NCBI GenBank assembly: GCA_035501555.1
Contig: DATJWA010000013.1
Span: 60,276 to 124,275 of the forward strand
DNA from: Thermoplasmata archaeon
Lineage (GTDB): Archaea; Thermoplasmatota; Thermoplasmata; Lutacidiplasmatales; UBA184
Length of the DNA stretch: 64,000 nucleotides
Reading direction: 5' to 3'
The notes under the pieces: generated by a model
The model's input: the letters and a program-made list of their open reading frames with translations, nothing else
Database searches by the model: none
What the model was told of the DNA's origin: nothing
Position numbers and translations under genes: made by a program
Part shown: positions 22,286 through 49,900 of the stretch, piece after piece
Position numbering within the stretch: position 1 is the first letter of the stretch
Layout: each line of letters begins with the position of its first letter

Positions 22286-23062
22286 ATGGAGCCGACGGCG
22301 GTCACAATCGTCGATACGCGCGACGAGCCCCTCCAGGGGGCGATGATGGTGGTGGGGTTCCCGACCCACGGCCTGGTCGGCTCGGTCGCCGCGTCGTACC
22401 TGGTCCACGCGCTCGACATGCAGCCGATCGCCTACATGATCAGCGAAGATTTCCCGCCGACGGTCGTGATGGAGGAGGGGATCGTAAACGCCCCCGTCCG
22501 CCTTTATGCCAGCAAGCTGGTCTGCGGGGTCGACCGCTCTTGCGACCAGTTGGTCGTGGTGATCGCCGACATCCAGCCGCCGGTGGAGATGCTCAACGCG
22601 CTCGGCCGGGTCCTGCTCGACTGGTCCGAGGCGAAGGGGGTGCATCTCATCGTCGCCATCGAGGGCCAGCCGATCGACACCGAGGTTGGCGCCGATGCCC
22701 GGATCGTGGCGATGGCGAACCGGGCCGCGGCCCCGCTCCTCGAGAAGTACCGCTTCGCCGCCGCGAACGGGGTCGTGACCGGCCTGGCCGGGGGCCTCCT
22801 CCTCGGGGCGATCAACCGCTCGACGCCGGTGCTCTGCCTGGTCGCCCAGGCGCACAAGGACTACCCGGACGCTCGCGCGGCCGCCAAGGTCATCGAGACC
22901 GTGAACCCGCTCGTCCCCCTGATCGCGCTAGACACGAAGCCGCTCCGGGAGAAGGCCCGCCAGATCGAGGCGGAGATGCGGAAGACCCTCCGGCAGACGA
23001 AGGAGTCGATGGCCAACATGCGGGAGAGTTCGCCGGAAGGGGCGGGTGAGATGTATCGCTGA
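22286..23062 (+). CDS. PAC2-family proteasome assembly chaperone (PbaA/PbaB-like)
   Basis: MVVGFPTHGLVGSVAASYLV N-terminal motif of the PAC2/DUF75 family, about 258 aa. The ORF-track reading frame extends far upstream as a GC artefact. Confidence 0.7.
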   Translation: MEPTAVTIVDTRDEPLQGAMMVVGFPTHGLVGSVAASYLVHALDMQPIAYMISEDFPPTVVMEEGIVNAPVRLYASKLVCGVDRSCDQLVVVIADIQPPVEMLNALGRVLLDWSEAKGVHLIVAIEGQPIDTEVGADARIVAMANRAAAPLLEKYRFAAANGVVTGLAGGLLLGAINRSTPVLCLVAQAHKDYPDARAAAKVIETVNPLVPLIALDTKPLREKARQIEAEMRKTLRQTKESMANMRESSPEGAGEMYR

Positions 23063-23552
23063 CACGTCGCCCGGGACGCGGGTGAGCCCGGTCCCCGAGG
23101 ACCGACCGGCGGTCTCGCTGCGGGGCTTCCGTCCGTCCGACGTGCCGTTCGTCTCCGCGATCGTCGCCGACGCGCTGCACGAGCACTACGACCCGAGCCT
23201 GTACCTCTCCCTCAGCTCCGAGTGGCCCGAGGGGTTTCTGGTCGCGGCCGACCACCATGACGTTCCGGTCGCCTTCCTCCTCGGCGTCTCCCAGGTCGTG
23301 CGCGAGGCGCGGATCCTGATGTTCGCGGTCGACCGGGCCTGGCGCGCCCAGGGGATCGGGCGGCTCCTGATGACGACCTTCTTCGAGCGCTGCCACGACC
23401 GCGGGTTCTCGAGGGTCACGCTCGAGGTCCGGGTCTCGAACGCGACCGCGATCCGGTTCTACACCCGGTTCAACTACTCGGTCGTCGACCTACTGCGGAC
23501 CTACTACTCCGACGGGGAGAACGGCTACCAGATGGCCCGCCCGCTCCCGTAG
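23046..23552 (+). CDS. GNAT N-acetyltransferase (RimI-like)
   Basis: RAQGIGRLLM acetyl-CoA motif, 168 aa. Confidence 0.7.
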   Translation: MRCIADTSPGTRVSPVPEDRPAVSLRGFRPSDVPFVSAIVADALHEHYDPSLYLSLSSEWPEGFLVAADHHDVPVAFLLGVSQVVREARILMFAVDRAWRAQGIGRLLMTTFFERCHDRGFSRVTLEVRVSNATAIRFYTRFNYSVVDLLRTYYSDGENGYQMARPLP

Positions 23553-23579
23553 CGGGGCTTCCTCGGACCCGGAGGGGCT

Positions 23580-24836
23580 ATGACCTCTCCACCGGATGCT
23601 CGGGCCATGCCCAGTGAATGGCCCACCGCGGGCGACCTGATGAATCCCCGTCCGGTCACGCTCCCGTTCGACGCGCCGATCTCCGAGGCGCTCGGGATCA
23701 TGAAGAGCAAGGGATACCACGAGATCCCGGTCCTGCAGCGCTCGCGACTCGCCGGGATGATCACCTTCGAGTCGCTCGCCCGGCGGGTGAGCCGAGCGAC
23801 CAACACGAAGGTCGGCAGCCTGCTGACCATGGCTCCCCTCATCACCCCCCGTCTCCTCCTCCCGGAGGTCGCCGAGCTATTGCTCGGCAGCGGACTCCGA
23901 GGCGGGCCGGTGGTCGGCCCGCGGGGGGAGCTGCTCGGCGTCATCAGTCGGACGAACCTCGTCGGCGCCCTCGCCGACCACCCGGAGTTCCCGCGCGAAC
24001 CCGTCGACCGGATCGGGAGTCCCGCGACCGTCACGATCCGCGAGGAGGACACGGTCCGCCATCTCCAGGCACAGATCCGGCTCCTCGAGGAGCACCCGCT
24101 CCCGGTGGTGGACCGGAAAGGGCGCCTCGTGGGCGCCGTCGGGGTCGCGGACCTCGCCTCCGTGCTGTGGCGGCCGGACACGGGCGGCAAGCGCGACCTT
24201 CCGCAACGCGCCCGCGCGCTCGACGTCCGCGTCTCCTCCTTCATGCGGTCCCCGGCGGTCACCGTCGCCTCGAAGACCCACTCGGGCGAGGCGGCCCGCA
24301 AGATGACCGATTCGAAGGTGTCGAGCGTGTTCGTCGTGGAGGACGGCCACCCGACCCGGGTCGTGGCGCAGGCGGACCTCCTCGGACTGGTCGTCGGGGC
24401 CGCCCGGACCGCCAAGGGGCCCGGCCGGATCGAGGACTGCTACGTCGAGGTCACCGGCCTCCGCGGCTCGAGCGATCCGGCGTTGCTCGCGGACATCGAC
24501 CACCTGGTCGCCCAAGGGCTGAAGCGAATCGCACGCCACCTCCATCCATCCCTCTTCAGCCTCCACCTCAGCCCGCACTCGACCCACCGAACGGCCGACA
24601 TCACCGCGGAGGGGCGCCTGCACACGGACGCGGGGATCTTCTACGCCTCCCAGACCGGCTGGAACCTGATGGCGGGCGTCTCGGGCATCATGGAGGAGCT
24701 GGCGGCCCAGGTCCAACGGGACCAGGAGAGCCGTCGCGAGCGGGTCCGGTCGCGGCGTCGCTCCCCGACGGACGAGACGGTCGAGGACGCCGACCTCGAG
24801 CGACGCATCCGCGTCGCGACGGGGGACGACGAGTAG
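23580..24836 (+). CDS. CBS-domain protein (two CBS pairs) with C-terminal HPF/RaiA-like domain
   Basis: Four CBS-like modules (IPVL, GPVVGPRGELLGVISRTNL, PLPVVDRKGRLVGAVGVADL, VFVVEDG..RVVAQADL). The C-terminal ~100 aa align by eye to ribosome hibernation factor HPF (VEVTG...TADITAEG.LHTDAGIFYASQTG...). Alternative start at ATG 23640 (MNPRPV). Confidence 0.55.
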   Translation: MTSPPDARAMPSEWPTAGDLMNPRPVTLPFDAPISEALGIMKSKGYHEIPVLQRSRLAGMITFESLARRVSRATNTKVGSLLTMAPLITPRLLLPEVAELLLGSGLRGGPVVGPRGELLGVISRTNLVGALADHPEFPREPVDRIGSPATVTIREEDTVRHLQAQIRLLEEHPLPVVDRKGRLVGAVGVADLASVLWRPDTGGKRDLPQRARALDVRVSSFMRSPAVTVASKTHSGEAARKMTDSKVSSVFVVEDGHPTRVVAQADLLGLVVGAARTAKGPGRIEDCYVEVTGLRGSSDPALLADIDHLVAQGLKRIARHLHPSLFSLHLSPHSTHRTADITAEGRLHTDAGIFYASQTGWNLMAGVSGIMEELAAQVQRDQESRRERVRSRRRSPTDETVEDADLERRIRVATGDDE

Positions 24837-24845
24837 GAGACGACG

Positions 24846-25244
24846 ATGATCCCCGGTGGCCCGCGCAACCAGCGCCAGATGGAGCTGATGATGCGACGCA
24901 TGGGCATGAAGACCGAACCGGTCGAGGGGGTGGAGGAGGTGGTCGTGCGCACCAAGACCAAGGAGCACGTGTTCTCGGCCCCCGAGGTGACGATCCTCAC
25001 CGTCCAAGGGGTCCGCACCTACCAGATCGTCGGGACGCCCGAGGTTCGAGCTCGCACCGCCGGCCCATCGGCCCCCGGAACGGCCTCCGGGGCTCCGAGC
25101 GCCCCCACGGGGCCGCCGGAGGAGGATATCCAGCTCGTGATGGAGCAGGCGCAGGTCTCCCGCGAGGAGGCCGTCGAGGCGTTGTTCCGCGCCAACGGGG
25201 CCCCGGCCGAGGCAATCATGCAGCTCATGACGCGGAGCCGCTGA
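24846..25244 (+). CDS. nac: Nascent polypeptide-associated complex protein (archaeal NAC-alpha)
   Basis: N-terminal NQRQMELMMRRMGM motif, NAC beta-barrel region, and a C-terminal UBA domain (DIQLVMEQAQVSREEAVEAL). Confidence 0.8.
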   Translation: MIPGGPRNQRQMELMMRRMGMKTEPVEGVEEVVVRTKTKEHVFSAPEVTILTVQGVRTYQIVGTPEVRARTAGPSAPGTASGAPSAPTGPPEEDIQLVMEQAQVSREEAVEALFRANGAPAEAIMQLMTRSR

Positions 25245-25259
25245 CGGCCCCGACGCACC

Positions 25260-25739
25260 ATGGGCGCGGTTCCGCCGCCCGGAGGGCTCCTCCCCCTCCC
25301 CCGACCGAATGAACCGGTCTCGCGGGAGTGCGTGGAGGGCTACCTGTTCTCCCGGGACCCGCTCGCGATGCTGGTCTTCCGACGGGTCCCCGCCCGGGGG
25401 TCGATCTGGGTGCCGATCCAGGGAAAGGTCGAGGCGAGCGACGCGAACCTTGAGGCCGCGCTGCTCCGCGAGGTCCGGGAAGAGACCGGCCTCGAGCAGG
25501 CGATCGCCGTGGTACCGCTGGACTGGCACGTCCCGTTCCGGGCGGAGAACGGGGAGGTCTGGCGGCTCCACGCCTACGGGGTCGAGGTCCCGAGGTCGTT
25601 CCACCCCCACCTGAACGACGAGAACCAGGAGTGCGAGTGGGTCGAGCCCTCCGAGGCCGAGCGCCGCCTCCACTTCACGGACAACCGCGAGGCGGTGGCT
25701 CGCCTGAGGGCGTGGCTCGATCGCCACCCGAGGACCTGA
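25260..25739 (+). CDS. NUDIX hydrolase
   Basis: Nudix box G..EASD..LEAALLREVREETGL. Confidence 0.7.
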   Translation: MGAVPPPGGLLPLPRPNEPVSRECVEGYLFSRDPLAMLVFRRVPARGSIWVPIQGKVEASDANLEAALLREVREETGLEQAIAVVPLDWHVPFRAENGEVWRLHAYGVEVPRSFHPHLNDENQECEWVEPSEAERRLHFTDNREAVARLRAWLDRHPRT

Positions 25740-25956
25740 TGGGAGCCGGGCTGACGGGGTTCGAACCGGTGGTGGCTGCTGAGCCGCAAGGCCCTGTTCG
25801 CGGCGTGAGGCGTGTACAGCCATGCCGTCGCGAGGGCCGCCGCTTCGTCGCATCGCCCCTCGAGAAGCACAGAGGGGAGGCACCAGGGCTCCCAGTCAAC
25901 CTCCCCAGGCCCCCAAACGTTTAGCGCGACACGAAGGTTGGAACCGGCCAGGTCCC

Positions 25957-26976
25957 ATGTCCGAACCGCCCAGTCCTCCACCGGCAGTCTTCCGGACCGT
26001 GGGCCCGGAGCTGTTCGCCGCCCTTCGGGCCGCTCACCCCTCCCGGGTCGTACTGCAGGTGCCCGCGGGCCTCGTGCGGAATGCCCACGAGCTCGTGGAG
26101 CGGATCCGGGTGGAGTCCGGTGCTCCTGTGATCCTCGCCGCGCGCCCGTGCTTCGGTGCGTGCGACTTCCCTTCTTCGGAGGAGGCGCCCCGCGCGGACC
26201 TCGCGGTGGTCCTGGGTCACGCTCCGATCCCGAACGTGCGGCTCCCCCGGCGTACGTTCTTCGTCGAGATGCGAGACCCCGGAGGGGACCCTGAGGCACT
26301 GGCGACGACCGTCCAGCGTGCTCGGGTCCCTCGTCGGCTGGGCCTTGTGGCCTCCGTCCAGCACCTCGACCTCCTATCCCCCCTGACCGCGGCGCTCGAG
26401 CGTCGAGGGTACGAGGTCCACGTCGAGCAGGGAGACCACCGCCTCGCCTACCCGGCCCAGGCCCTCGGGTGCAACTATACCGGCGCCGAGGCGGTCGCCG
26501 ACCGGGTCGACGCCTTCCTGTTCGTCGGAACGGGGCGGTTCCATCCGGTGGGATTGGCGTTCGCCGTCGACCGGCCGGTCTGGGCTCTCGACCCCCTGCA
26601 GAACCAGCTCGAGCCCCCGGTCGACCGGGCGCTCCTGATCGGCCGCCGTCAGCTGGCGGTCGCGTCCGTCCGTGACGCCCGCCGATGGGGGATCCTGGTC
26701 TCGACCTTCGCCGGGCAGAACCGCTCCCCGACCGCGCTCGCCCTCCAGGAGCGGGCGCGCGCCCGGGGCCGGGAGGCCGAGCTCCTGTTCTTCGACCGGC
26801 TCGACCCGCGCGACCTCGAGGGCCGGGCGTTCGACGCCTACGTGAACACCGCCTGCCCGCGCATCGCCTTGGACGACGGGATGAATTACCCCCGTCCGGT
26901 GCTCACTCCCCCGGAGTTCCTGATGGCCCTCGGCGAACTGCCTCTCGCCCCGTATCGGTTCGACACGTACCACTAG
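25957..26976 (+). CDS. dph2: Diphthamide biosynthesis enzyme Dph2 (2-(3-amino-3-carboxypropyl)histidine synthase)
   Basis: Three-domain Dph2 layout with conserved Cys in RPCFGACD and the NTACPR motif. Start at ATG 25957 (MSEPPS); the upstream ORF extension is composition-driven. Confidence 0.8.
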   Translation: MSEPPSPPPAVFRTVGPELFAALRAAHPSRVVLQVPAGLVRNAHELVERIRVESGAPVILAARPCFGACDFPSSEEAPRADLAVVLGHAPIPNVRLPRRTFFVEMRDPGGDPEALATTVQRARVPRRLGLVASVQHLDLLSPLTAALERRGYEVHVEQGDHRLAYPAQALGCNYTGAEAVADRVDAFLFVGTGRFHPVGLAFAVDRPVWALDPLQNQLEPPVDRALLIGRRQLAVASVRDARRWGILVSTFAGQNRSPTALALQERARARGREAELLFFDRLDPRDLEGRAFDAYVNTACPRIALDDGMNYPRPVLTPPEFLMALGELPLAPYRFDTYH

Positions 26977-37681: not shown

Positions 37682-38015
37682 GATCTCTCTCCGTGCGCCC
37701 GTGAAGCGGCCCGACGGGCGCGGCTCGGGGACCTTCCCCTGAGTTCGCCCGATCACTCCGAAGAACGGGCGACCGGCTCCGAGAGGGCTTCTTAGAGAAC
37801 TGCCTTCCTGCAAAACTGTGGAGGCCGAAGGCGACGCGTTCTCGCGTTTCCCGTACTGGCCCTTCCGTGAGACCCCGTACCGCTTCCACCACGGCCGAAC
37901 CCCCCGCGTACCATGCGGAGGGGTTCTGCCGCTCTTGCCGTGATGGGGACCACCATGGCCCCCGGGTGTGCCCCCAGCTATTTCTGTGCCGCGACCTTCG
38001 CCGCTCGGCGAGTCG

Positions 38016-39210
38016 AATGCGTCGCACGGCGGGAAAGCTCGCTGGGTCCCCTATCTCTTGGGATCAAGTCAGGGCCTTCCGACTGAATCGCCACCATCTG
38101 TCCCAACGGGCTCCGAAGAAGGCGCTTACCTCCGTCGTGACCGATATGGGCGGGGCCCAAGCCCAGCTGGTATCGGCAGCTCAGGTATCGCTCTGGGCGC
38201 GGACGGAGAATTTGGTGCCCGCGGACGTCAACTCCGCACTTTGGGAAGACCGCCTTCTCGCGAAGGCCTGGTGTATGCGAAGAACAGTGCACTTACTTCC
38301 TACGGAGCATCTTGCCGTATTCGTCAGAGGCACGGCTCGTAGGGCGGAGAAGGAGGTCCGCTACGTGCTCAACCGTGGAGTGACCGCGGAGCGGCTGGAG
38401 GAGCTACTGAGGGTGGTGATCGCCGTTCTCGATCGGCCTGTCACTCGCTCGCAACTGGCCGTTCTCGTGAGCCGAGAGCTCTCCTTGCCGTTGACCACAG
38501 GTCAATGGGCCGGTTGGGGCAGCCGGCGGGAAGTTCCCTGCGTGAAGATGGCGAATTTCACGTTTCCCGCGGACTTTTTGCTCCACCTCGCGGGGGCACG
38601 GGGGGTCCTCTGCGCAGGACCTGACAATGAAGGCGAGTCCACTTCGGTTCGAGCGGATGCATGGCTGCCTCGCTGGCATGACCTGCCGGGCCTTCGGGCG
38701 GAGCAGGAGCTCCTCCGCTTGTATCTCCGCGCGTACGGGCCCGCGACGCCATCCGATTTCAAAGCATGGACTCAGATGCGACTTGCCGACGCACGGACCA
38801 TCTGGACACGCCTAGAAAGCGAGCTCGAGCCAGTTGACATAGAGGGAGAAGCGAAGTGGATTCTCCGAGCGGATCTGCGTGAGCTCGAGCACGCCGAGCT
38901 CCCTGGGTTATCGGTGTGCTTGCTCCCGTACTTCGACTCGTTTCTCCTCGGACACGAAAGGCGCGGCCATCTCCTCGAGGCGCGACACCATCCCCAAGTA
39001 TATCGGGCTCAGGGCTGGATTGCTCCGGTGCTCTTGGTCAACGGTCGGGTCGTGGGTGTGTGGACTCACACTCGGAAGGGAGACCTGCTGACCGTGCGGG
39101 TCACCCGTTTCTCCCGCTTGCCATCGGGGGTCGATCCTCGGGTCCGAGCAGAGGCCCAAGGCCTCGCACGGTTCCTAGGATGTTCTGGCGCGACTACGCT
39201 CTTGAGCTGA
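38016..39210 (+). CDS. Winged-helix HTH_42 / AlkZ-YcaQ-like protein (putative DNA glycosylase)
   Basis: The N-terminal half matches the DUF1006/HTH_42 family (AQ..W.....R...LLK.W.MR.T.HLLP). About 398 aa from ATG 38016. Sits in the lower-GC segment. Confidence 0.55.
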
Positions 39211-39816
39211 GGCGAGGTCGGCTCGTCCACGGCATTGCCGCGTTCCCGATAGATTCGGCTGGCGCAGCGTCGACAGCGGCTCCGTTCGTCCGCCAAGTCG
39301 ATTCTCCACGATTCGAACGCGTTCCTTCCCCATCCCGAAACCACCCTTTTCCGAACTCACCGACAACCTCGGACGGGCCAGCCGGGCGGCTGGGGCTTTG
39401 AACCAATCGACGAAGCCCTCCCGCGGCTGATTTCCCTCGATTCCCTCGGGGCGAACGGGTGTGGAGGGACCCGAACCCTAGTGTCAGGGCCTCCTTGGGC
39501 GCTCGGTCGGTGACCTGACCGTACGGAGCGCGTCGACTCCTCTCCCCTCTCGGGGGAGGGAGAATCGCGGGCGCGGTCAGCGGGAGCGGGGGTTCCCACC
39601 CACTAGTGTGGCCGTCGGATACCATGTTTCCGTCAGAACACGGCGCCGGAGACATTCGTTCCAGAAGGAGTTGGAGCGACTCCCCTTCGGGTACCCTCAA
39701 TGGGCGACCTGACGACGGGAGCACAACCGGGTCGCGGGGTCCGAGCGCCGCCGCGCAGGACGAGCTCTTGATAAGTATCTGGCCCCCGTACGTTCCCTCG
39801 ATTTGGAAGGGCTTCG

Positions 39817-40503
39817 ATGGAAGCCGGATCTGACCACGCTCTAACCGGGCTGGCGTTCGCGGCGACGCCCATCGGGATTGCGCTTCTCTTGCTCGGGGCC
39901 TGGCTGTCTGGGATAGATTGCTGGAGCGGCCCGGTGGCCTTCTCGACGTGCCCCCTGTCCGACCTTGAGTACACGTTCCGTGCCGTACTTCTCTTCTCGG
40001 GCGGGATTGCCCTCGGACTGGGACTCGGCCTCCTTACGCAGATCATGGTCGAGAAGCGTCGCTTGGCCGGGCGTAGGGCGCAGCCAAGAGATGGGCCCCC
40101 CCGCGACACTGGCCCGCCGCCCAAGCGGTCGCCCCTGACCGTCACCATGGTTTGCGTTGCCGTCGCCGTGGCAACGCTCGTCGCACTCGTCGTGGTCCCT
40201 GTCCCCCAAGGGTTCACGATGCACGACGCGGCCATTTACGATCTCGAAACGGACTGTCCGGGGATCTATACTTCACCGGGCACGGTGGTCAGCTTCCATT
40301 GGTCTGCTGGGTCGTTCACGTACTTCTTCGTCGTGGGCTGTCCGGCTAACGAAGAGGTGTACGATGCCAACGGAACCAGCGGCTCGGGTTCCTTCATCTC
40401 CTCTGGCGGCATCTATGAGTTCGGTGGCTCCTGCCCGAGCTCGCTTTTCTGCGTCCCGGCTAACGTATCCGGCACCTACACAGGTCCAATCATCCCACCG
40501 TAA
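39817..40503 (+). CDS. Membrane-anchored Cys-containing protein (unknown)
   Basis: Three hydrophobic helices, then a ~110-aa Gly/Ser/Cys-rich C-terminal domain. No recognisable family. Confidence 0.35.
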   Translation: MEAGSDHALTGLAFAATPIGIALLLLGAWLSGIDCWSGPVAFSTCPLSDLEYTFRAVLLFSGGIALGLGLGLLTQIMVEKRRLAGRRAQPRDGPPRDTGPPPKRSPLTVTMVCVAVAVATLVALVVVPVPQGFTMHDAAIYDLETDCPGIYTSPGTVVSFHWSAGSFTYFFVVGCPANEEVYDANGTSGSGSFISSGGIYEFGGSCPSSLFCVPANVSGTYTGPIIPP

Positions 40504-40643
40504 CGTCTCCGTCAGCCGTTTCCATACAGGCACGACGGCCGACTGAGTGGCGGCTCGAGCCACGAGGGCGGCCGTGCTGCGAGGGCGGCCGCGAGCGCAG
40601 GCGTCTAGGCTGCTTCACCGACCGGTGGGGTCGAGAGCGGGCG

Positions 40644-41915
40644 GTGGGCTACGCGTCGGCTCCTCCCCTGTTTCGGGAAGGGAGACCCGCAGGTCGGGCG
40701 GCAGAATTAACGGCGGTCGGGCCGATGTCGGACGGGATGGAAGGGCGTCGAACAAGGAGAAGCCGGTTGGTCGCTCCCCTTCTTCTGGCCGGCACTCTGC
40801 TTCTCCTCTCGACCCTCTTTCTGGGCTGGTACACGATCAACCTGAACTCGGGGACCTCGGTCTACCACGAGACCTTCTACTCGACGGTCGTCCGGCTCTC
40901 GGGCTCCCAAGCGGGAAGTTCCTATTCTAACGCGACCTCCTACGTTTCGGTTTTTCTCGGCGACACCGGCATTCTGTATCTCACCGTCAGCGGGCTGGTG
41001 GTCGCCGGAGTAGTGGTCGGTTTGTTGGCTGTGTACCTCGTCTGGAAAGGGACCACCCAGAGACATCGGAAGCTCGTTCCCACCCTGGTGGCCTTGGTGG
41101 TCGCTTTCGCTCTGGCAGGACCCATGCTAGTTGGAGTGGTCCAGCCCGCAACACTCTGCCAGGGAGGGGGACCCCCGCAGAGTACCCCGCTCGCCGCATC
41201 GTCTCCGAGCCTCATGGCCGGGCCCTCCTCCAGCTGCTCGTGGGTCGTCGCCTCTCCTTCCCAAGGGGGAACCCTTTACGACTCCGGAAATGGTCCAGGG
41301 CCCCAGACTTCCTTCTACGGTTCCTCGAGCGTGGGGGGACAGCCCCTCACCTGGGGACCCTCCATCGGTTGGTTTGTCGCGGTCGTCGCCTCCACTCTCC
41401 TCATCGCGGGGGCTGCCCTCGATCTCCAGCAACTGGGAAGCTCTACGCGCCCTCAACTGGTGAGGGCCCGATTTGCCGCCCAGACCGGTCTGGCATCAGC
41501 TGGGCTCCTGGTGCTTACTGGGCTGCTCCTGTTCTGGTTCGACTCCCCAGCCTGGCCCTCCTACCAAACGATCCCGTGCGGCCTGATGAGCTGCCACCTG
41601 TATCCGTACAGCGAGATGCTCTCCGGATCTCAGGCCTTCGTCTTCGTCTGCCTCGTCGTCGCCCTGGTCGCGGTCGCGGCCCTCCCGAGATTTTGGGCTT
41701 TCGGAATCGGCACCGGAGCCCTCGCCTTGGTGGCCCTCTGGTTGCTGGCGGGCTCGTTCGGAGCCGCCGACACCCCGGGTGGGGCGTACGCCTGGGGGCT
41801 GGGATCCGTGTTCGTCGGCGGAGCTCTAGCGATTGCTGCTTCTATGGTTATCCGACAGACATACCGCCCGAAGCGCGGAGAGACTCGAATGGGAGCCTCA
41901 CCTCAGAGTTCATAG
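40644..41915 (+). CDS. Polytopic membrane protein (unknown)
   Basis: 8+ hydrophobic segments with Ser/Gly/Pro-rich loops. The start is probably downstream (MSDGMEGRR). Confidence 0.4.
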   Translation: MGYASAPPLFREGRPAGRAAELTAVGPMSDGMEGRRTRRSRLVAPLLLAGTLLLLSTLFLGWYTINLNSGTSVYHETFYSTVVRLSGSQAGSSYSNATSYVSVFLGDTGILYLTVSGLVVAGVVVGLLAVYLVWKGTTQRHRKLVPTLVALVVAFALAGPMLVGVVQPATLCQGGGPPQSTPLAASSPSLMAGPSSSCSWVVASPSQGGTLYDSGNGPGPQTSFYGSSSVGGQPLTWGPSIGWFVAVVASTLLIAGAALDLQQLGSSTRPQLVRARFAAQTGLASAGLLVLTGLLLFWFDSPAWPSYQTIPCGLMSCHLYPYSEMLSGSQAFVFVCLVVALVAVAALPRFWAFGIGTGALALVALWLLAGSFGAADTPGGAYAWGLGSVFVGGALAIAASMVIRQTYRPKRGETRMGASPQSS

Positions 41916-42450
41916 CGCCCTGAACCGGTTGCGTCCTCCTTCCACTCTGCCCCGGCCTCCCTCGGTGACCCAAACGCGCAGCGAACGCGCCCAACGGAGG
42001 GCCGGTGGATCTCGACCCCGAACGGGGCGAGCGCGGCGAGACGAATCCATAAGCCGAAGGTGTTCCGACACCTCCCCGCAGGGCAGCACCGCTGGACAGC
42101 TATCACTGCGGCCGTGGCCGAGTGGGTCGCTCGGGTCTATCGACATGGGAAGGGGTACCGGGTCGTGGTGGAGGGCCTCCTCGATTTCGACGCTGATCAG
42201 CTGGAGGGGATTGAGGAGCAGACCGCCGCGGCGATTTTGGCGCGGCTCCGGACGTCCTATCCGTCACGTGCTAAGCCATGGAGGGACGCCACCGCAGAGC
42301 GAGTCATGGAGTTCGAGGTGGCGGTTCAACGGGTCCCGGCAGACACGTCGGACTGCGAACCAACAGCGTGACTGATGCCTCCGCTCAACGCGGCCGGCAC
42401 GACGCGCCACGGAACCTCCGTGCGGTCGGTGCGCAATAGTACAAGCCACC

Positions 42451-42750
42451 TTGGGCACTTATCCATGGGGGCCCGTTTCCATGCGGTCGGAGATGAGTCA
42501 AGCCACGGCGTTGCTCGTTCTTGTCTGCTTGATCATCGGGACGGTACTGGTGGTGACTGCTGACGAGGTCTTCCGTACCCCCACCTCCTGCGTGAGCCTG
42601 GAGGGGACGTGCACGCCTCCCCCCCTTCCATGGTCGACTCTAGTGGTGGCCGGCGTTTTCCTCGCGATTGGGATCGCTTCGTTCGCGGTGGGCGCACTTA
42701 ACCTGCTACGCTGCGTCCCTCGCATTCGCAAGGCCTCCGGGCAACCCTAG
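42451..42750 (+). CDS. Small 2-TM protein (unknown)
   Basis: 99 aa with two hydrophobic helices and a Cys/Pro-rich loop. Coding status uncertain. Confidence 0.3.
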   Translation: MGTYPWGPVSMRSEMSQATALLVLVCLIIGTVLVVTADEVFRTPTSCVSLEGTCTPPPLPWSTLVVAGVFLAIGIASFAVGALNLLRCVPRIRKASGQP

Positions 42751-42969
42751 CGGACTCCCCCGGGGTCGCCCTCGTGCGAGCGCCACCGACCGTCCCGGGA
42801 GTTCGTCAAGCGTGATGGATTGGGACCTCTGTATTGGGCCAGAAGCGGAGCGCCTTTCGTCCCGGCCTCCGGTCGATACGAAGGCCTTTCTCGCGAGCCA
42901 TTGCGAGGAGCGCGTCGAACGCCTCGGGAGTCAGGGGTGGCTTAATCTAACGGAGGTCGGTCTCGGGTC

Positions 42970-44910
42970 GTGGCCACCACCCGACGGCTCGCCGCCATCA
43001 TGTTCACCGACACGGTCGGCTACACCGCGGCGACCCAAGCCGACGAGGGGCGCACCCTCGACCTGCTCCGCCAGCAGGCGGAGCTGGTCCGGCCCCTGGT
43101 CGCCGTGCACCAGGGGAGAGAAATCAAGTCGACCGGGGATGGCTTCCTGGTCGAATTCGACAGCGCGCTGAAGGCCACGCAATGTGCGGTGAGCATCCAG
43201 CGGCGCATTCACGAGAGGAATGCGGAGGGAGGTCTCGCGCCCATTCGAATCCGGATCGGCATTCACCTCGGGGACGTCGTACAGAGTGGCGCGGACATCC
43301 TGGGTGACGCGGTGAACATCGCCGCCCGTATCGAACCGATCGCAGAGCCCGGAGGAATCTGCGTATCCGGCGCAGTCCAGGAGCAGGTACGGAACAAAAT
43401 CCCCGACAGACTCGAGAAGCTAGCACCGACGGCCTTCAAGGGGCTTGAGCTACCCATGGATGTCTATCGGCTCGTATTGCCGTGGACCGTCGGCGAGCGG
43501 GCTTCCGAGGACCACGGTGCCTCCCCGACCGACAAGAACCGGATCGCCGTTCTGCCGTTCGTGAGCATGAGCCCGGACCCGAACGACGAGTACTTTGCCG
43601 ATGGCCTTACCGAGGAGCTGATCGCCAACCTGGCGCTCGTCAAGGGGCTCAAGGTGATCGCCCGAACGTCGGTGATGGAGTACAAGAGGAAGGAGAAGCA
43701 CGTCTCGGCGATCGGAAAGGAGTTGGGGGTAGGGACCGTCGTGGAAGGCAGCGTTCGGAAAGCCGCGAACCGGATCCGCGTCACGGTACAGGTCATCGAC
43801 GTCGCGACCGAGGAGCATCTGTGGGCTTCGAAGTACGATGACACGCTCGACGACATCTTTGCGGTGCAGAGCGACATCGCGACGAAGGTCGCCGCGTCGC
43901 TCCCGAGCAATCTGGCTCCCACTCCGGCCCAGGTGCCGCCGCTCCAGGAGACCCGAGATATGCCGGCGTATCTCCATTTTCTCCAAGGGCAGGCCCTCGT
44001 TTGGCAGCGCGAGGAGGTCCCCATCCGACAGGCCCTGCGTTTCTTCGAGCAGGCGGTCGAACGCGACCCGAGCTTTTCCAGGGCCTACGCCAGCATCGCC
44101 CGGGCCTACAAACAGCTCGGTGAGGAGGGACTCATCTCCTGGTCCGAGGCGATCGTTCAAGGGAAGGCGGCGGCCGAGAGGGCCATCCGGATCAATCCCA
44201 ACTTGGCGGAGGCCCACGCCATGTTGGCGGAGCTGTCGTTCATGGCGGACGACCCCACCGAGTTGCAGGAGAGAGAGGCGAGGAAGGCCCTGGAGCTGAA
44301 CCCGAATCTCGCCGAGGCCCACGATATCCTGGGCCAGATCGCGGGAATCAAAGGAGACCTACGCTCGTACGTCCGATACATCGAGGAGGCGTATCGGTTG
44401 GACCCGCTCTCTCCGCCGTCGATACGGTACCTCGGAAGGGCGTACTGGCTGGCGGGCCGGGAGGAGGAGGCCCTGGAGCACTGGAAGAAGACGCTGCATC
44501 TCGACCCGATTACTTCCTACCACGGCCTGAGCGACTACTACATTGCCAAGGGGGACCTCGAAAAGGCGGCCGAGATGACGAAAGAGATGGAGAGAATCGC
44601 GCCGACGAATCGACTCACCTACCTGAAGCGCGGGTACCTCGCTGCCCTGCGGGGAGACCGGACGACCGCGATGGAGATGATCGCCAAGCTCGACGCGGCT
44701 CACGACAAAGGCTGGGTAACGTCCCCGTACGCCGGATTCATCTATCTCGCTCTCGGAGACCTAGACAAATTCTTCGACTACATGTTCGCCGCCGTCAAGA
44801 CCCACACACTCCCTTTGAGCACCCTCCTGTTCTCTCCTCTCTTCGTCGACGCACGGAAGGACCCCCGATTCGAACAGGTGGTTTCGCTCGACCGTCAGCT
44901 CAATCCGTGA
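42970..44910 (+). CDS. Class III nucleotidyl cyclase (CHD) - TolB_N-like - TPR multidomain protein
   Basis: CHD motifs FTDTVGYT, KSTGDGF and GDAVNIAARIE. A TolB-N-like segment (IAVLPFVSMS..EYFADGLTEEL...GSVRKA.NRIRV), then 6+ TPR/Sel1-like repeats. 646 aa. Confidence 0.8.
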   Translation: MATTRRLAAIMFTDTVGYTAATQADEGRTLDLLRQQAELVRPLVAVHQGREIKSTGDGFLVEFDSALKATQCAVSIQRRIHERNAEGGLAPIRIRIGIHLGDVVQSGADILGDAVNIAARIEPIAEPGGICVSGAVQEQVRNKIPDRLEKLAPTAFKGLELPMDVYRLVLPWTVGERASEDHGASPTDKNRIAVLPFVSMSPDPNDEYFADGLTEELIANLALVKGLKVIARTSVMEYKRKEKHVSAIGKELGVGTVVEGSVRKAANRIRVTVQVIDVATEEHLWASKYDDTLDDIFAVQSDIATKVAASLPSNLAPTPAQVPPLQETRDMPAYLHFLQGQALVWQREEVPIRQALRFFEQAVERDPSFSRAYASIARAYKQLGEEGLISWSEAIVQGKAAAERAIRINPNLAEAHAMLAELSFMADDPTELQEREARKALELNPNLAEAHDILGQIAGIKGDLRSYVRYIEEAYRLDPLSPPSIRYLGRAYWLAGREEEALEHWKKTLHLDPITSYHGLSDYYIAKGDLEKAAEMTKEMERIAPTNRLTYLKRGYLAALRGDRTTAMEMIAKLDAAHDKGWVTSPYAGFIYLALGDLDKFFDYMFAAVKTHTLPLSTLLFSPLFVDARKDPRFEQVVSLDRQLNP

Positions 44911-45110
44911 GGATGTGCTGGTCGCTCTCGGTGCCCCCCTTCAGCTCAAGATGTAGACCCCGATCGAGGGTTCAGCCAAACGATCCGGATCTCGGAGTGG
45001 GGCGAGAGAGCGGTCCCACCAGGGCTTGTGGAAGTCGAGCCAAGTCAGGCCGCGCAGCCGCCTGCGCTCCGCTTGAGGTAGCCCCCCTCGGCCGGGTTGC
45101 GAGCGGATGG

Positions 45111-45845
45111 CTACGCCCGTCCCTTGGAGGGAGGCGGCAGGAATTTCTCTAAGATTGCTGCAATGGGTTGAACGTCCCTCAGCTGATGGGCCTTTCCCGC
45201 CGCGAGCGGCCCAGCGGAGATGCCTCTCTCGCACTGGACGGTCGCGTCTCGCCAGTCGGTCGGGCTGTGTCCCTCGACGTGGAGAATCACATCGAATATC
45301 GATGTGTGGGTGGTAGGTGCTTCGGCCCACAGGGCTACCTGGCAGGTTCCGGATTCCAGCATCGCACGCATCAGAGGAGCAATTCGCTCGGGGGAGTATA
45401 CCGTGGCAAGGCGTTGGGCGTTCGCCGTTACAAGAATCGACGGTGCGTCCACCCGACCCGTGGCCGAGATCAGCTTCTGGGCGTGCGAAGGCATGCGAAG
45501 AAACTCCACGAGGCCTTGAATCGAATGCGAGGGCTCATCGGACCTGAGCATGGTCGCCGCAGCCCCCTCCGCCCGCTGGGCCTGGATGTCGTCCGGCTGC
45601 AGCTCACGGGGGGAGAGGACGTAGACCGAGTCTTCGGGAACCGCGTGAACGGTCATGGGGTCGAGAGGGTCGAGAATCTCTCCCGGGAGCCGAACGTCGG
45701 TCCAGTAGACCCGCGAGCCAAAAGGGGCGAGAGCAGCGAACGCGAACCACTTCAGCAACGATCGGCTGGTCCCCGCGATGAAGACGGAGGACGGCTTCCC
45801 GAAGACGCCGGGGAAAAGTTCGACGGTCGGTGGCGCCCCCCCCAC
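45111..45845 (-). CDS. Hypothetical protein, possibly degenerate RecA/KaiC-like fold
   Basis: Spacing resembles the KaiC/RadB core (GV.G....VFIAGTSRS..., SVYVLS.EL), but no intact Walker A. Weak assignment. Confidence 0.3.
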   Translation of the reverse strand: MGGAPPTVELFPGVFGKPSSVFIAGTSRSLLKWFAFAALAPFGSRVYWTDVRLPGEILDPLDPMTVHAVPEDSVYVLSPRELQPDDIQAQRAEGAAATMLRSDEPSHSIQGLVEFLRMPSHAQKLISATGRVDAPSILVTANAQRLATVYSPERIAPLMRAMLESGTCQVALWAEAPTTHTSIFDVILHVEGHSPTDWRDATVQCERGISAGPLAAGKAHQLRDVQPIAAILEKFLPPPSKGRA

Positions 45846-46065
45846 AGACAGTCAGAACTGCCATCTCCCCTTAAGAACCTGACCGCCGCCCCACGGAGGC
45901 GCGACTCCCTCCGGGGGAGAGCGCGCCGGGTCAACGCTCCCTTTCAACCGTCGCCTTGAACGGTCTGTCCAACCCCTCTCGACGGCTGATTCCCCACCGG
46001 CGGCTCGACCGCGAGTGGCTGGGGGGTGATCAATCGGGAAGACTGGTGCTCGGTCTCCGGTCAAC

Positions 46066-47415
46066 TCAGAGGCCGACAAGGAGAAACACGAACAGCAACG
46101 CGAGCGTGATCGCCGTGAGGGGAAGACCCACTCGTACGAACGATCGGAGGCCGATGCGTACGCCCGCTCGCTCCGCCTGCTGGACCACGATCAGATTGCT
46201 CGCCGCCCCGAGAAGGGTGAGGTTGCCGGCCAGGGTGCTGCCACCGGCCAGCGCCACCCACACCAACGGCGTTCCGGCACCATATCCGACCGACCGAAGT
46301 ATCGGAATCTGAAGCGCCACCCAGGGAACATTGCTGACGAGCTGAGAGCCTCCCAGACTTGTCAGCAGGATGGCTCCGAGCGCCGTGACGGGGTGAGCCG
46401 GACCAGGGACGGGCAGGATTCCCTCGATCGCGGAGAGCACCCCGCCGTTGGAGGCTCCAGCCACCACGACGAACAGGGCGCCGAAGAGTACCAGGATCGA
46501 CCAATCCACCCGGCCGAACAGTTCCGAGCGACCGGGGCTTGCCACCAGCGTGACGATCGCCCCCCCGAGCGCAATCAGATACAGCGGGGCGGCAGGGCCT
46601 CCGGTGACGGCCGCGACAACGTCCACGGTGATCAGGGCGAGGATGGTTACCGGGAAGACGACCAGGGTAGGGTACCGCCGGGCCAGAGGAAGGATAGGGG
46701 TACTCGGGAAGAGTCGTGGGCGGGCCACCGGGGGGCCCTCGGTGGACCCCGACTCCTGAGCGATCCGACGGCCGTACACCCGTCGGAGGTAGAGCCCGCC
46801 CACGAGCAGGTTCACGAGGGTTGGGAGGAGCAGGTACCGGAGGAAGGTCGCCAGCGGAGAGCTGAGTCCGCTCCCCAGGGACACCAACAGGTTTTGTGGG
46901 TTCCCGAACGGCGTGGCGACGCTCCCGACCGTTACCGAGAATGCGAGGGTGAGGAGAAGCGGCTCCGCGGAAACGCGCATCCGACGGGCGAGGGCGAACA
47001 GGAGCGGGACCCCCACTAGGACCAACGCGTCGTTCAGGACGAACGCGGAGAGGATTCCGATCGCCACGAACAGGACGAACGGGACATCGGCCGGCCTTCG
47101 TGCCGTCCCGAGCACCCAGAGCGCGAGATGGTCGAGGGCGCCGGCCTGTTCGAGCCCGGCGGCGAACAAGAACAGGGCAAACAGGAAGATCAGGATGGAG
47201 AGGTTCGACCCGACTGCGGCGGACGCCGCCGAGATCGGAAGAACTCCGCTGGCCACCATGAGGAAGGCCCCGACGAGGAACACCACCCATATCGGTGGAC
47301 CACGCCGGAGGAGTTGTCGGGCGATGACCGCGCCCACGGTCGCGCCGAGAATCCCTGCCGCGATCGCGTCCACCTCTGGGCCCCCGGGTGAGGCAACCGC
47401 AATCGGGTGAGCCAC
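46066..47415 (-). CDS. ArsB/NhaD-superfamily anion permease
   Basis: 12+ TM helices, with the TPFGNPQNLLV motif typical of ArsB_NhaD/CitMHS permeases. Confidence 0.7.
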   Translation of the reverse strand: MAHPIAVASPGGPEVDAIAAGILGATVGAVIARQLLRRGPPIWVVFLVGAFLMVASGVLPISAASAAVGSNLSILIFLFALFLFAAGLEQAGALDHLALWVLGTARRPADVPFVLFVAIGILSAFVLNDALVLVGVPLLFALARRMRVSAEPLLLTLAFSVTVGSVATPFGNPQNLLVSLGSGLSSPLATFLRYLLLPTLVNLLVGGLYLRRVYGRRIAQESGSTEGPPVARPRLFPSTPILPLARRYPTLVVFPVTILALITVDVVAAVTGGPAAPLYLIALGGAIVTLVASPGRSELFGRVDWSILVLFGALFVVVAGASNGGVLSAIEGILPVPGPAHPVTALGAILLTSLGGSQLVSNVPWVALQIPILRSVGYGAGTPLVWVALAGGSTLAGNLTLLGAASNLIVVQQAERAGVRIGLRSFVRVGLPLTAITLALLFVFLLVGL

Positions 47416-47894
47416 TAAAGATTCTCGAAGCCCAGCCGAGTTCGGTCGCCCCGAGGCGCACTTTGCAGGATCGATCGGGGGCGGTGGGCGATCCCCACCC
47501 GACTCCTAGTGGATGGATGCGCCCCGGGAGCTCCGCGCTCCACCGGGGATGTCCTCTCGGAACATGTCGGCGGACGGGGCGCCGAGGCCTGGGATCCCCC
47601 GGGAATTCGATTCCGCCGCCGATCAGGGCTGAACGCGGGAACCCACGGGTTCGGCGACTGGTCCTAGTCCCGGCGGCCTGACGGTCGGTCCACCTGGCCC
47701 GAAGGCCTTCGCGCCGATTCGCACGGGATGGAATAAGCGGTGCTTCAAGCCCCTCCCGCGGAGATGTGTCCGCCCGCCCCGATGCTCCCGTCCGCTGCAG
47801 GTCCTCCCCTGGGCGGGGTCGGTCCTTATGGGGGGGATGCAGCGTGGACTTTGAGGCCTCGTTCGGACTTTCGAATGTGGTGGGAGAGCGAAAG

Positions 47895-48629
47895 ATGAGC
47901 CGAACCCGGCCCCTCATGTTCCATCGGCTGGCCCCGTACTATGACCACCTGGTCGGGACCAAGGATTACAGGTCGGAATCTAGGTTCCTCGAATCCCTCG
48001 CGCGAAGGCTCGTTCGTTCCCGAGGGCGAGCCTGGCTGGACGTGGCGTGCGGGACCGGAAGACATCTGAGCTTCCTCCGCCGACACTACACGATTACCGG
48101 GGTCGACGTGAGCCGCGAGATGCTCCGGCTGGCCCGACGTCGTCTTCCCCGAACCCGCTTGGTTCGCGGGGACATGAGGAGCTTCCATCTGGACGAGAGG
48201 TTCGACGTGATCAGCTGCCTGTACAGTGCGATAGCCCACCTGAGGACGGAACGGGACCTCGAAGCGACCTTGGTGAATCTTGCTCGCCACCTGAAGCCAG
48301 GCGGCGTCGTGATCATCGAGCCGTGGATCGACCCCGCGGACTTTCGGCAAGGGTTTGTTCACCTGCTCACTCACACCACCCGCTCGGTCACGGTCGCCCG
48401 CATGGCCTTCTCCTCCCGTCGGGGGAGGCGCTCGGCGGTCCACTACCACTATCTGATCGGTCGGCCGGGTCGTCGGGTCGCGCATTTCGAGGAGGTGGAC
48501 ATCGGACTCCTGGTGCCTCGAAGACGCCTGCTGAAACTCATGCGGCGCACCGGCCTGACCGCGCGCTTCCTGAAACGGGGGCTTCCCTCCGGTCGGGGCT
48601 TGCTGCTGGGACTCAAGGGCCCCAGGTAG
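47895..48629 (+). CDS. Class I SAM-dependent methyltransferase
   Basis: LDVACGTGRH (motif I) and DVISCL (motif II). Start at ATG 47895; the ORF track begins earlier without support. Confidence 0.7.
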   Translation: MSRTRPLMFHRLAPYYDHLVGTKDYRSESRFLESLARRLVRSRGRAWLDVACGTGRHLSFLRRHYTITGVDVSREMLRLARRRLPRTRLVRGDMRSFHLDERFDVISCLYSAIAHLRTERDLEATLVNLARHLKPGGVVIIEPWIDPADFRQGFVHLLTHTTRSVTVARMAFSSRRGRRSAVHYHYLIGRPGRRVAHFEEVDIGLLVPRRRLLKLMRRTGLTARFLKRGLPSGRGLLLGLKGPR

Positions 48630-48852
48630 CCTGGCACAGTGCATTCTCCCTGCGCTCCCGACCTCGATGGTCCCGGGACGTGCGAGGCACGCATTCGAGC
48701 CCAGGTCCCACTCGCTCCCGAGGAGGGTCCACCGGAGTTCTCTTTCCGGTCCGAGCCTCGCTCCGTCCGAGCCACCCCGCTGCCCGATCTGCTCTCGGCC
48801 GGGCCCGGATTCCCGTGGGGGTGGCGAAAATGGGAGCCAACTCAGTCGGTGG

Positions 48853-49386
48853 TCATGCGATAGCGCGCGTTCGGGCGAGGTCGATGGCGGGAGGCTGTAC
48901 ATCCATCTGCCAGAGCAATGCGTTGAGCTCGCCTTTGTGCTCCAGGTCCCCTTCGATCATCTGCAGGAGCATCGAGCGGATCGTGATGGACCGGCGGTCG
49001 ACCTGGATGAAGAACTTCCGGTCCAGGTCCTCGGGCACCAGTCGCCTCAGGAAGCTACTCACAAGCCGGTCCACGTCGCGCGTGGCCCGTTCGGCCTCGG
49101 CGCGGCTGAGCCGGGTGCCGAGAGGGAATTCCTCGAACGACCTACCGGTGTAGGCCGTGATGAACCAGAACCGGTAGTCGTCCAGAATGTGAAGGTACAG
49201 GTCGACGAGCGAGGGGAAGGTGGACCTGCGGTCCCGGTACCGCTCCTTGACGGGAAGGCTCCAAATCGTGCGAAGATAGCTCCGGAGCTTCTTGAAATGG
49301 TACCGGTACACGGCTCGGAACAGCTCTAGCTCGGTCGTCATGGTTGCCGGAGCGTGAGCCGGTCCGGTCCTATGTCGTTTCGGCAA
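48853..49386 (-). CDS. DinB/YfiT-like (DinB_2) four-helix-bundle protein
   Basis: Helical protein with conserved His/Asp/Glu spacing (HILDDYRFW, EGDLEHKGEL). Alternative start at MTTELELF. Confidence 0.5.
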   Translation of the reverse strand: MPKRHRTGPAHAPATMTTELELFRAVYRYHFKKLRSYLRTIWSLPVKERYRDRRSTFPSLVDLYLHILDDYRFWFITAYTGRSFEEFPLGTRLSRAEAERATRDVDRLVSSFLRRLVPEDLDRKFFIQVDRRSITIRSMLLQMIEGDLEHKGELNALLWQMDVQPPAIDLARTRAIA

Positions 49387-49424
49387 CCGTGGAGGGCGTC
49401 GACGAAGCCCCGTGGCGCCCGGGC

Positions 49425-49838
49425 CTAGGACTCGTTCCCTCCACTCGTGGCCGGGCGGACCGGTGGAGCAGAGGCGGCCCCTCCCTTGGCTCGGGCCGCG
49501 GTGATCGCAGCGACCACCGGGCTCGACGGGGTTTCTCGGTTCAGGATGAAGCGGTGTCCATCGACCTCTACTCCTGGGATCGGCATCTGGTCGCCGTACC
49601 CGATGCGAATGTGGAACTGACAGGCGGAGACCGTTCGAACCTGGCCCAGCTGCACCGACACGTCGGGCGGGAGGATTGGGGCCCGGCCGCGGAGCAGCCC
49701 GCTGTGCCGGTAGAAGAGCACCCGTCGGTCTGTCAAGACCAGCCAGCCCGGAACCCCCTTCGCGCCGGCCGTTCGGACCGACTCGGCCGGCCAGCTTGCT
49801 ATCTCGGTCTCGCCGACCTCAAGTTCAAACTGCGTCAC
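49425..49838 (-). CDS. Bacterial PH-like domain protein (unknown)
   Basis: GWLVLTDRRVLFY motif resembling the bPH/GRAM fold. Confidence 0.35.
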   Translation of the reverse strand: MTQFELEVGETEIASWPAESVRTAGAKGVPGWLVLTDRRVLFYRHSGLLRGRAPILPPDVSVQLGQVRTVSACQFHIRIGYGDQMPIPGVEVDGHRFILNRETPSSPVVAAITAARAKGGAASAPPVRPATSGGNES

Positions 49839-49900
49839 GCGACCTCTGCCTGGGGGCCGGCCAACGCCGGCACGACCTTGAGTCCGTCGTGCTCCCCCGG

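Follow-up and report, generated by a model that had tools for sequence, protein, structure and literature searches.

Archaeal ribosome hibernation factors in which a module of four CBS motifs precedes a domain of the HPF/RaiA type have been described twice, independently and under different names. HibA (Hib in an earlier preprint) was characterised from Pyrococcus abyssi (PAB0961) and Thermococcus barophilus (Madru et al., Nat Commun 2026, PMC13324472; PDB 9SR9-9SRF, 9T7H) and has been resolved on ribosomes at better than 2.5 A. The P. abyssi protein places its HPF domain in the mRNA/tRNA channel of the 30S subunit and its CBS module on the 50S subunit, where the module takes up three positions, in one of which a loop of CBS3 (residues 190-207) wraps a peptidyl transferase centre (PTC) adenine that is universally conserved. 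HibA inhibits in vitro translation, its CBS module binds AMP with a dissociation constant of 12 uM, tighter than ADP or ATP, and deletion of hibA in T. barophilus lowered the stationary-phase 70S pool by ~60% and doubled the regrowth lag (PMC13324472). The Haloferax volcanii factor, AHA (HVO_2384), was reported in an independent preprint with two AMP molecules at the CBS3/CBS4 junction and its 'loop 3' in the PTC (PMC12934967); its 'ribosome hibernation factor' domain had been noted already in a 2025 mBio paper (PMC12607858). Here we analyse a stretch of 64,000 nucleotides (hereafter the window) from a Thermoplasmata archaeon (NCBI GenBank assembly GCA_035501555.1, contig DATJWA010000013.1, positions 60,276 to 124,275) and conclude, with a probability of about 0.9, that its gene at 23580-24836 encodes the Thermoplasmata orthologue of HibA/AHA.

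Full-length homology carries this assignment. In a phmmer search, residues 19-387 of the window protein aligned to residues 8-377 of P. abyssi HibA (chain 9sr9_H) in one alignment (E=2.4e-17), with seven sister entries also matched, and the archaeal CBS-HPF chain 9l96_a matched the window protein at E=7e-15; our literature search found no paper describing PDB entries 9L96, 9L98, 9L9C and 9L9V. We place the gene with HibA/AHA because a CBS tetrad, an HPF domain, homology along the whole length, the CBS3 loop and an archaeal host are found together. The original prediction, a reading of the bare sequence that preceded this analysis, had held an archaeal fusion of CBS motifs with HPF to be unusual, but HibA is reported from 47% of archaeal genomes (PMC13324472) and AHA from 2,723 archaeal species, with 3,160 homologues (PMC12934967). 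The family is already established by the structures of 2025-2026, and the window protein is a further orthologue and not a new factor.

Homologues of the window protein number 447 at E<=1e-5, and the 120 listed share 59-100% identity over lengths of 400-420 amino acids; the one on record that is 100% identical is labelled as belonging to a Thermoplasmata archaeon metagenome-assembled genome (MAG). The gene is archaeal in origin: some 80 related loci carry the label Thermoplasmata archaeon, and the neighbouring PAC2, NAC and Dph2 genes are of archaeal/eukaryotic type. Column identity is 73-83% in every domain across 84 clade sequences that are 60-89% identical overall, which indicates purifying selection. 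Public annotation says little of this: relatives are mostly entered as 'CBS domain-containing protein', 'Dehydrogenase' is the deposited name of the P. abyssi homologue, and many close relatives bear the automatic JGI name 'CBS domain-containing protein/ribosome-associated translation inhibitor RaiA'. One homologous locus, with a HibA 58% identical (L048, DAIDCO010000032.1), sits in a record named 'MAG TPA_asm: bacterium isolate clean3188'. This is probably an archaeal bin under the wrong name, although a few Patescibacteria are reported to carry AHA-like proteins.

The N-terminal part of the window protein contains four CBS stretches (Pfam PF00571, E=1.6e-31) and matches no other Pfam family. 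The AlphaFold2 (AF2) model shows four beta-alpha-beta-beta-alpha units in this module, and every protein that Foldseek listed for the full-length model was a CBS tetrad (template modelling (TM) score on the target up to 0.83). The closest solved folds to the tetrad were two hibernation factors seen on archaeal ribosomes, SriA/B (9znf_4, E=6.7e-19) and Dri (9e6q_3, E=5.2e-17), with MJ1225 and AMPK-gamma next, an order that fits the relationships reported for AHA (PMC12934967). Within the tetrad, G120 of CBS motif 2 is invariant across the wide family, and D191 (CBS3, also invariant) and D266 (CBS4) occupy the canonical ribose-binding positions of 'G-x-V-x-x-x-D' motifs. Judged by likeness to the HibA/AHA site, the CBS3/CBS4 pair is probably an AMP/ATP site.

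Between CBS3 and CBS4 lies a segment of 20 residues (196-215) that aligns to the P. abyssi HibA loop at residues ~190-207. Its 'LWRP..gGKrD' pattern is at least 90% conserved among the 84 clade sequences, and the predicted local distance difference test (pLDDT) score falls below 50 at 202-206, so that the tip is disordered in the AF2 model, as might be expected of a loop that becomes ordered only on the ribosome. By its position and conservation the segment is the counterpart of the 'PTC loop' of HibA and the 'loop 3' of AHA, and it may enter the PTC.

For the C-terminal domain, single-sequence similarity is marginal (E. coli HPF against the window protein, E=0.029), and we therefore turned to profiles and structure. 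The full-length AF2 model (pLDDT 81.9, predicted TM score 0.76) gives the order beta1 (288-292), alpha1 (300-317), beta2 (323-335), beta3 (338-349), beta4 (352-360) and a long alpha2 (363-393), and the C-terminal domain modelled alone (pLDDT 84.1) has the identical order of elements. Because Foldseek returned only CBS tetrads for the full-length model, the fold signal of HPF needed this separate model, with which the top 37 matches, at E-values as low as 8e-7 and TM scores of at most 0.82, were all HPF, RaiA/YfiA, plastid pY/PSRP1 or RafH. Archaeal HibA entries were not among the matches listed for either model, so the link to HibA itself rests on sequence. The HPF domain of HibA/AHA is marked by insertions specific to archaea, in the beta1-alpha1 loop and the beta2-beta3 hairpin, and by a terminal helix that exceeds the bacterial one in length. 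In the window protein the terminal helix (363-393) is clearly long, and the beta2-beta3 hairpin is long as well, with a conserved tip 'PHaTHRT' and low AF2 confidence at 334-337.

Profiles tell the same story. Set against the NCBIfam profile TIGR00741 (yfiA), the C-terminal 118 amino acids by themselves gave a marginal match (E=0.0086) that covers positions 18-100 of the profile's 102, and 6 of 13 clade members matched Pfam PF02482 (best E=0.0022). A profile built from 13 clade sequences of the domain and run against the whole PDB gave five matches at E<10, all of them HPF-family or archaeal CBS-HPF chains; the best was E. coli HPF (6h4n_x, E=4.4e-4), in which 'TvEARLHTDeGIFYASHTGWNL..' aligns to 'TSDATLHVDGGELHASAEGQDM..'. 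A broader profile of 26 sequences, whose members share 21-35% identity with the window domain, reached P. abyssi HibA at 1.6e-5 and chain 9l96_a at 2.4e-5, and matched about 22 bacterial HPF/RaiA/YfiA chains across nearly the full domain. That the clade profile favours E. coli HPF over Pyrococcus HibA points to fast divergence within archaea, and may bear on the debated origin of the domain, from the last universal common ancestor or by horizontal gene transfer.

Most of what the original prediction had said of the protein is borne out by these results. The open reading frame (ORF) it placed at 23580-24836, on the forward strand and with 418 amino acids plus stop, is recovered in our recomputation, as are its four CBS motifs; the likeness of the C-terminal part to HPF/YfiA is upheld by profile E-values, and the predicted structure of that part has the HPF fold and not a different one. 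It had the extent of the domain wrong, taking the last ~100 residues where the HPF domain covers residues ~285-393 and residues 394-418 are a lineage-specific extension. It had also named PF02482 as the family to look for, which the window protein does not match, while the similarity to S30AE/HPF is significant at profile level.

By homology with the P. abyssi and H. volcanii cryo-electron microscopy structures, a mechanism can be proposed. The HPF-fold domain (~285-393) would occupy the small subunit's mRNA/tRNA channel, covering the decoding centre together with the A and P sites and so excluding mRNA and tRNA, while the four-CBS disc would rest on the large subunit, from where the long CBS3 loop could reach the PTC. 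With one polypeptide gripping both subunits, idle 70S ribosomes would be kept assembled and protected from degradation in starvation or stress, and AMP, probably bound by the CBS3/CBS4 pair, may couple the factor to energy status. Ribosome binding, inhibition of translation and AMP binding are thus expected from the homologues. The earlier suggestion of an energy-sensing ribosome-silencing factor agrees with the experiments on HibA and AHA, and by extension the window protein most likely silences idle ribosomes at low energy.

Several points weigh against this assignment or its details. The window protein is known from sequence alone, and its source is the MAG of an uncultured Thermoplasmata. 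With the domain alone, TIGR00741 scored 16.5 bits, below its cut-off of 40.9, and PF02482 matched neither the whole window protein nor its C-terminal part. No match to the P. abyssi HibA chain came from the narrow 13-sequence profile at E<10, and since only the broader profile reached it, the HPF domains must be much diverged and their ribosome contacts may differ in detail. The solved HibA/AHA proteins have no counterpart of the 25-residue C-terminal extension. Finally, AMP and ATP caused no clear change in ribosome binding by P. abyssi HibA (PMC13324472), and the energy-sensing step is for this reason offered as a proposal.

The features of the locus are collected in Table 1.

Table 1. Features of the HibA/AHA locus, with positions counted from the first nucleotide of the window
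Feature	Position	Strand	Basis
CBS tetrad and HPF-domain protein, HibA/AHA orthologue (very probable)	23580..24836	+	ORF, homologue search, P. abyssi HibA alignment
Probable true coding sequence, 409 amino acids, from M10 'MPSEWPTA'	23607..24836	+	Start column of clade homologues
Conserved A/T-rich box, window 'gcTATGAcc', relatives 'gcTAARAcc'	23576..23586	+	63 related loci
CBS motif 1, residues ~17-70	23628..23789	+	PF00571 best stretch 17-70; AF2 secondary structure
CBS motif 2, residues ~78-135	23811..23984	+	Pfam stretches; boundaries from AF2 model
CBS motif 3, residues ~142-195, ends 'GAVGVADL'	24003..24164	+	Pfam, conservation, AF2 model
Extended CBS3 loop, residues 196-215, 'LWRPDTGGKRDLPQRARALD'	24165..24224	+	P. 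abyssi alignment, conservation, pLDDT
CBS motif 4, residues ~216-272	24225..24395	+	Pfam, AF2 model
HPF/RaiA-fold domain, residues ~285-393	24432..24758	+	
Lineage-specific C-terminal extension, residues 394-418	24759..24833	+	Column conservation, family comparison
PAC2-family proteasome assembly chaperone homologue	22286..23062	+	PF09754 E=1.3e-34; TIGR00161
RimI-like GNAT acetyltransferase, directly upstream of HibA	23046..23552	+	Pfam Acetyltransf_1 E=4.5e-17; TIGR01575
NAC protein with UBA domain, 9 nt downstream of HibA	24846..25244	+	NAC E=2.2e-14; UBA_HYPK E=6.8e-8
NUDIX hydrolase, 15 nt downstream of NAC	25260..25739	+	Pfam NUDIX E=9.7e-15
Diphthamide synthesis protein (Dph2 type)	25822..26976	+	PF01866 E=1.7e-62

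Although the ORF opens at ATG 23580, which has a GGAGG 4 nt upstream, translation probably begins at ATG 23607 (M10) to give a product of 409 amino acids, because 80 of the 83 clade homologues begin at that column. Residues 1-9 have 1% occupancy in the clade alignment, relatives carry AAG or AAA where the window has ATG 23580, and we rejected the upstream codon on these grounds. It falls instead inside a conserved A/T-rich box ~24-28 nt upstream of ATG 23607, in a spacer that is otherwise ~80% G+C (the window as a whole is ~70%). Across 63 related loci the AT fraction reaches 0.9 at -28 to -26 against ~0.2 around it, and a TATA-like word occurs at -38 to -22 in 46 of them. The box could serve as the archaeal TATA box of a HibA transcript with a short leader or none, and its position between the GNAT and HibA genes suggests that HibA has a promoter of its own, separate from GNAT.

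The C-terminal extension consists of the last residues of a basic linker (RRERVRSRRRS, with a net charge of +5 across 380-396) and an acidic helix, 'DADLERRIRVATG' (net -6 over 397-418), with the motif D403-x-x-L-E-x-x-I-R (D403, L406, E407, R411). Mean column identity over helix residues 403-414 is 0.75 in the 84 sequences, level with the CBS motifs, while the flanks fall to 0.41-0.55; AF2 places the helix at 404-414 with low confidence. It is present in the nearest relatives (P0126-P0128) and absent from the 22 more distant family members compared.

HibA lies within six co-directional genes, PAC2-GNAT-HibA-NAC-NUDIX-Dph2, spaced from a 17-nt overlap (PAC2 with the start of GNAT) to an 82-nt gap. 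Four of the six touch translation or nascent chains, namely the N-acetyltransferase type, HibA, NAC and Dph2; diphthamide synthesis of the Dph2 type acts on translation elongation factor 2. The RimI-like GNAT, NAC and PAC2 genes that the original prediction had seen as a ribosome-associated setting are thus present, and we followed their order in 80 species-level Thermoplasmata genomes that carry the gene (54-89% identity), counting informative loci. PAC2 and GNAT hold a fixed position in all 76 of these, and NAC is conserved in 63/63 related loci, NUDIX in 62/63 and Dph2 in 58/63; the order, GNAT included, is kept even at ~38% identity (P0128 locus).

Beyond this lineage the picture changes. 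A scan of genome contigs reached no further than the close Thermoplasmata clade, but a degenerate DNA pattern (60 of 74 matches true) yielded 60 further HibA loci from metagenomes, falling into 15 clusters at 70% identity. Among these a single cluster (L121, L143) had a RimI-like GNAT immediately upstream, and it probably shares its lineage with L091/L092, where an upstream GNAT is also found. The pairing was recorded over the loci L006-L085, L087, L091, L092, L121 and L143, counting the informative ones, and the other distant HibA loci have unrelated neighbours. Adjacency of GNAT and HibA as a property of the whole family can be ruled out; it is confined to the Thermoplasmata lineage and one other. 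Therefore, the ribosome/proteostasis neighbourhood is real but bound to lineage, and it is weak evidence for functional coupling.

Three further observations concern the surroundings. In three distant loci (L091 2952-3515, L086 1-411, L088 3452-3895) HibA is closely preceded, in the same direction, by a small gene resembling P-loop nucleotide/nucleoside kinases (AAA_18/AAA_17 type, or APS kinase); the arrangement may be coincidental or may point to adenylate metabolism. The listed Dph2 ORF of 384 amino acids exceeds its orthologues in related loci (341-361), and its listed start is probably too far upstream. Across ~38001-50000 of the window, G+C falls from ~0.70-0.73 to 0.64-0.67, and this may mark a different origin or gene content.

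The acidic helix and the upstream GNAT raise the question of how the factor is controlled. One could imagine an undescribed, lineage-specific control in which the acidic helix on its basic linker and the GNAT switch the factor between active and inactive states through acetylation or partner binding, the GNAT-HibA pairing mirroring that of Pat2 and AHA in H. volcanii and the six-gene array acting as a translation/proteostasis stress module; we consider this unlikely. A shade less likely still is that a HibA-type factor is controlled mainly by GNAT acetylation or sequestration and not by adenylates, with the acidic helix as part of the control, for instance by folding back, as an autoinhibitory element, onto the basic linker or the HPF surface that binds rRNA. 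The catalytically dead H. volcanii GNAT Pat2 Y154A co-purifies with HVO_2384, which is acetylated at K311/K313 in vivo, but wild-type Pat2 did not acetylate it in vitro (PMC12607858), and GNATs are mentioned neither in the HibA paper (PMC13324472) nor in the AHA paper (PMC12934967). The upstream, co-directional pairing, found in 76/76 Thermoplasmata loci, at the P0128 locus (~38% identical) and again in a single distant lineage (L091/L092, L121, L143), would suit such control, yet it is absent from 13 of the 15 distant clusters and from the P0131, P0135 and P0138 loci and could be inherited gene order, and the TATA-like box argues for separate transcription. Likewise, a helix conserved as strongly as the folded domains, and the 'sequestering partner' suggested by the HibA authors themselves (PMC13324472), speak for control of this kind. 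Against it, the window GNAT finds its best match in the RimI, or N-terminal acetyltransferase, type (NCBIfam TIGR01575 rimI, 79.4 bits, slightly under the 86.4 cut-off), which fits NAC and a co-translational role unrelated to HibA.

It is very unlikely that the protein is a generic CBS regulator of metabolism or transcription (HhpR, IMPDH/AcuB-like), with a C-terminal domain that is only superficially HPF-like and binds, for example, double-stranded RNA or protein. The uninformative public labels would allow such a regulator, the CBS part draws weak NCBIfam matches to HhpR, CcpN and IMPDH, and pull-downs tie Thermococcales HibA to replication and recombination proteins (PMC13324472). Yet the HhpR match is far from its threshold (NF053603, 20.8 bits against a cut-off of 520), proteins of the HhpR type (CM-3) are without the HPF domain that the window protein has (PMC13324472), and the homology spans the full length of a factor seen in place on ribosomes. 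That the ORF is no working gene but a remnant in decay, either a pseudogene or an artefact of fusion in a MAG, as the nature of the source and the frameshifted look of one library representative (P0136) might suggest, has a negligible chance and is for practical purposes refuted by the conservation data, given an intact reading frame, an identical protein on independent contigs up to 177 kb, 447 homologues conserved in length and in the columns of every domain, and a gene at the matching position in about 80 species-level genomes.

The HibA/AHA reading places this gene in a family that shows an HPF ribosome-silencing module to be common to bacteria and archaea, and in which the archaeal HPF is fused to an adenylate sensor like that of AMPK-gamma, linking translation shutdown to energy state. 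To this family the window adds one orthologue from an uncultured, high-GC Thermoplasmata lineage, with an architecture that could be recovered by reading raw sequence. Its public annotation can be corrected from 'CBS domain-containing protein' to HibA/AHA, with the start codon moved. The conserved acidic C-terminal helix, the GNAT-HibA pairing and the start at 23607 may be unreported features, and the helix and the fixed GNAT neighbour could guide work on the regulation of HibA/AHA factors.

Set beside the systems already known, the window protein shares with AMPK gamma a four-CBS disc with adenylate sites 3 and 4, and AMPK gamma matches residues ~17-272 (E ~1e-14 to 1e-15, TM-target ~0.7); but identity is 14-18%, and AMPK gamma is part of a kinase heterotrimer with neither HPF domain nor ribosome role. 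Nearer in function are the archaeal CBS-tetrad hibernation factors Dri (Pyrobaculum calidifontis; PDB 9E6Q/9E7F), which also inserts a loop into the PTC (PMC12934967), and SriA-D or ARC-A/P (Methanosarcina acetivorans; PDB 9ZNF/9ZNG/9ZNI). Both are without an HPF domain, Dri being made of two tetrads and Sri of stand-alone ones, so their likeness to the window protein is confined to the tetrad, and their distribution is largely complementary to that of HibA/AHA (PMC13324472, PMC12934967). A second CBS-tetrad or HPF gene was searched for in the 64-kb window and none was found.

Bacterial and plastid HPF, RaiA (YfiA, protein Y) and PSRP1 are related to the window protein at profile level, and the archaeal homologues use the matching site on the small subunit. 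These proteins, however, are either stand-alone domains of ~95-115 amino acids or long HPF with a C-terminal dimerisation domain, which we did not find in the window protein with Pfam or in the AF2 model, whereas here the HPF domain follows a tetrad of 270 residues and falls under the curated thresholds of TIGR00741 and PF02482. The published action of HibA/AHA is moreover to hold 70S ribosomes together, as against the formation of 100S dimers. The window protein is therefore not a strict member of the bacterial HPF family, nor is it of the Dri/Sri or HhpR type. A 400-amino-acid RaiA from the bacterium Porphyromonas gingivalis (PDB 9I5V, chain 9i5v_14; PMC12123416) likewise has a large N-terminal part, of which 34 residues are modelled, before an HPF-like region at ~314-400.

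With AHA the likeness extends to the whole plan. AHA is the same family under another name, with its CBS tetrad on the 50S subunit, 'loop 3' in the PTC, HPF over the A and P sites of the 30S subunit and AMP bound where CBS3 meets CBS4, and the window protein keeps D191, D266 and the loop; AHA differs, as far as its published description allows comparison, in being an acidic haloarchaeal protein for which no C-terminal acidic helix is described. HibA is only ~20-25% identical to the window protein, its hosts are hyperthermophiles where the window host, with ~70% GC, stems from metagenome surveys of soil and other environments, and the PAC2-GNAT-HibA-NAC-NUDIX-Dph2 context is not discussed for it (PMC13324472). 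Yet the two proteins share a four-CBS module (1-269 in P. abyssi) followed by an HPF/RaiA-like C-terminal domain, a long CBS3 PTC loop at the matching place, a long terminal helix running into a basic tail, and an archaeal host.

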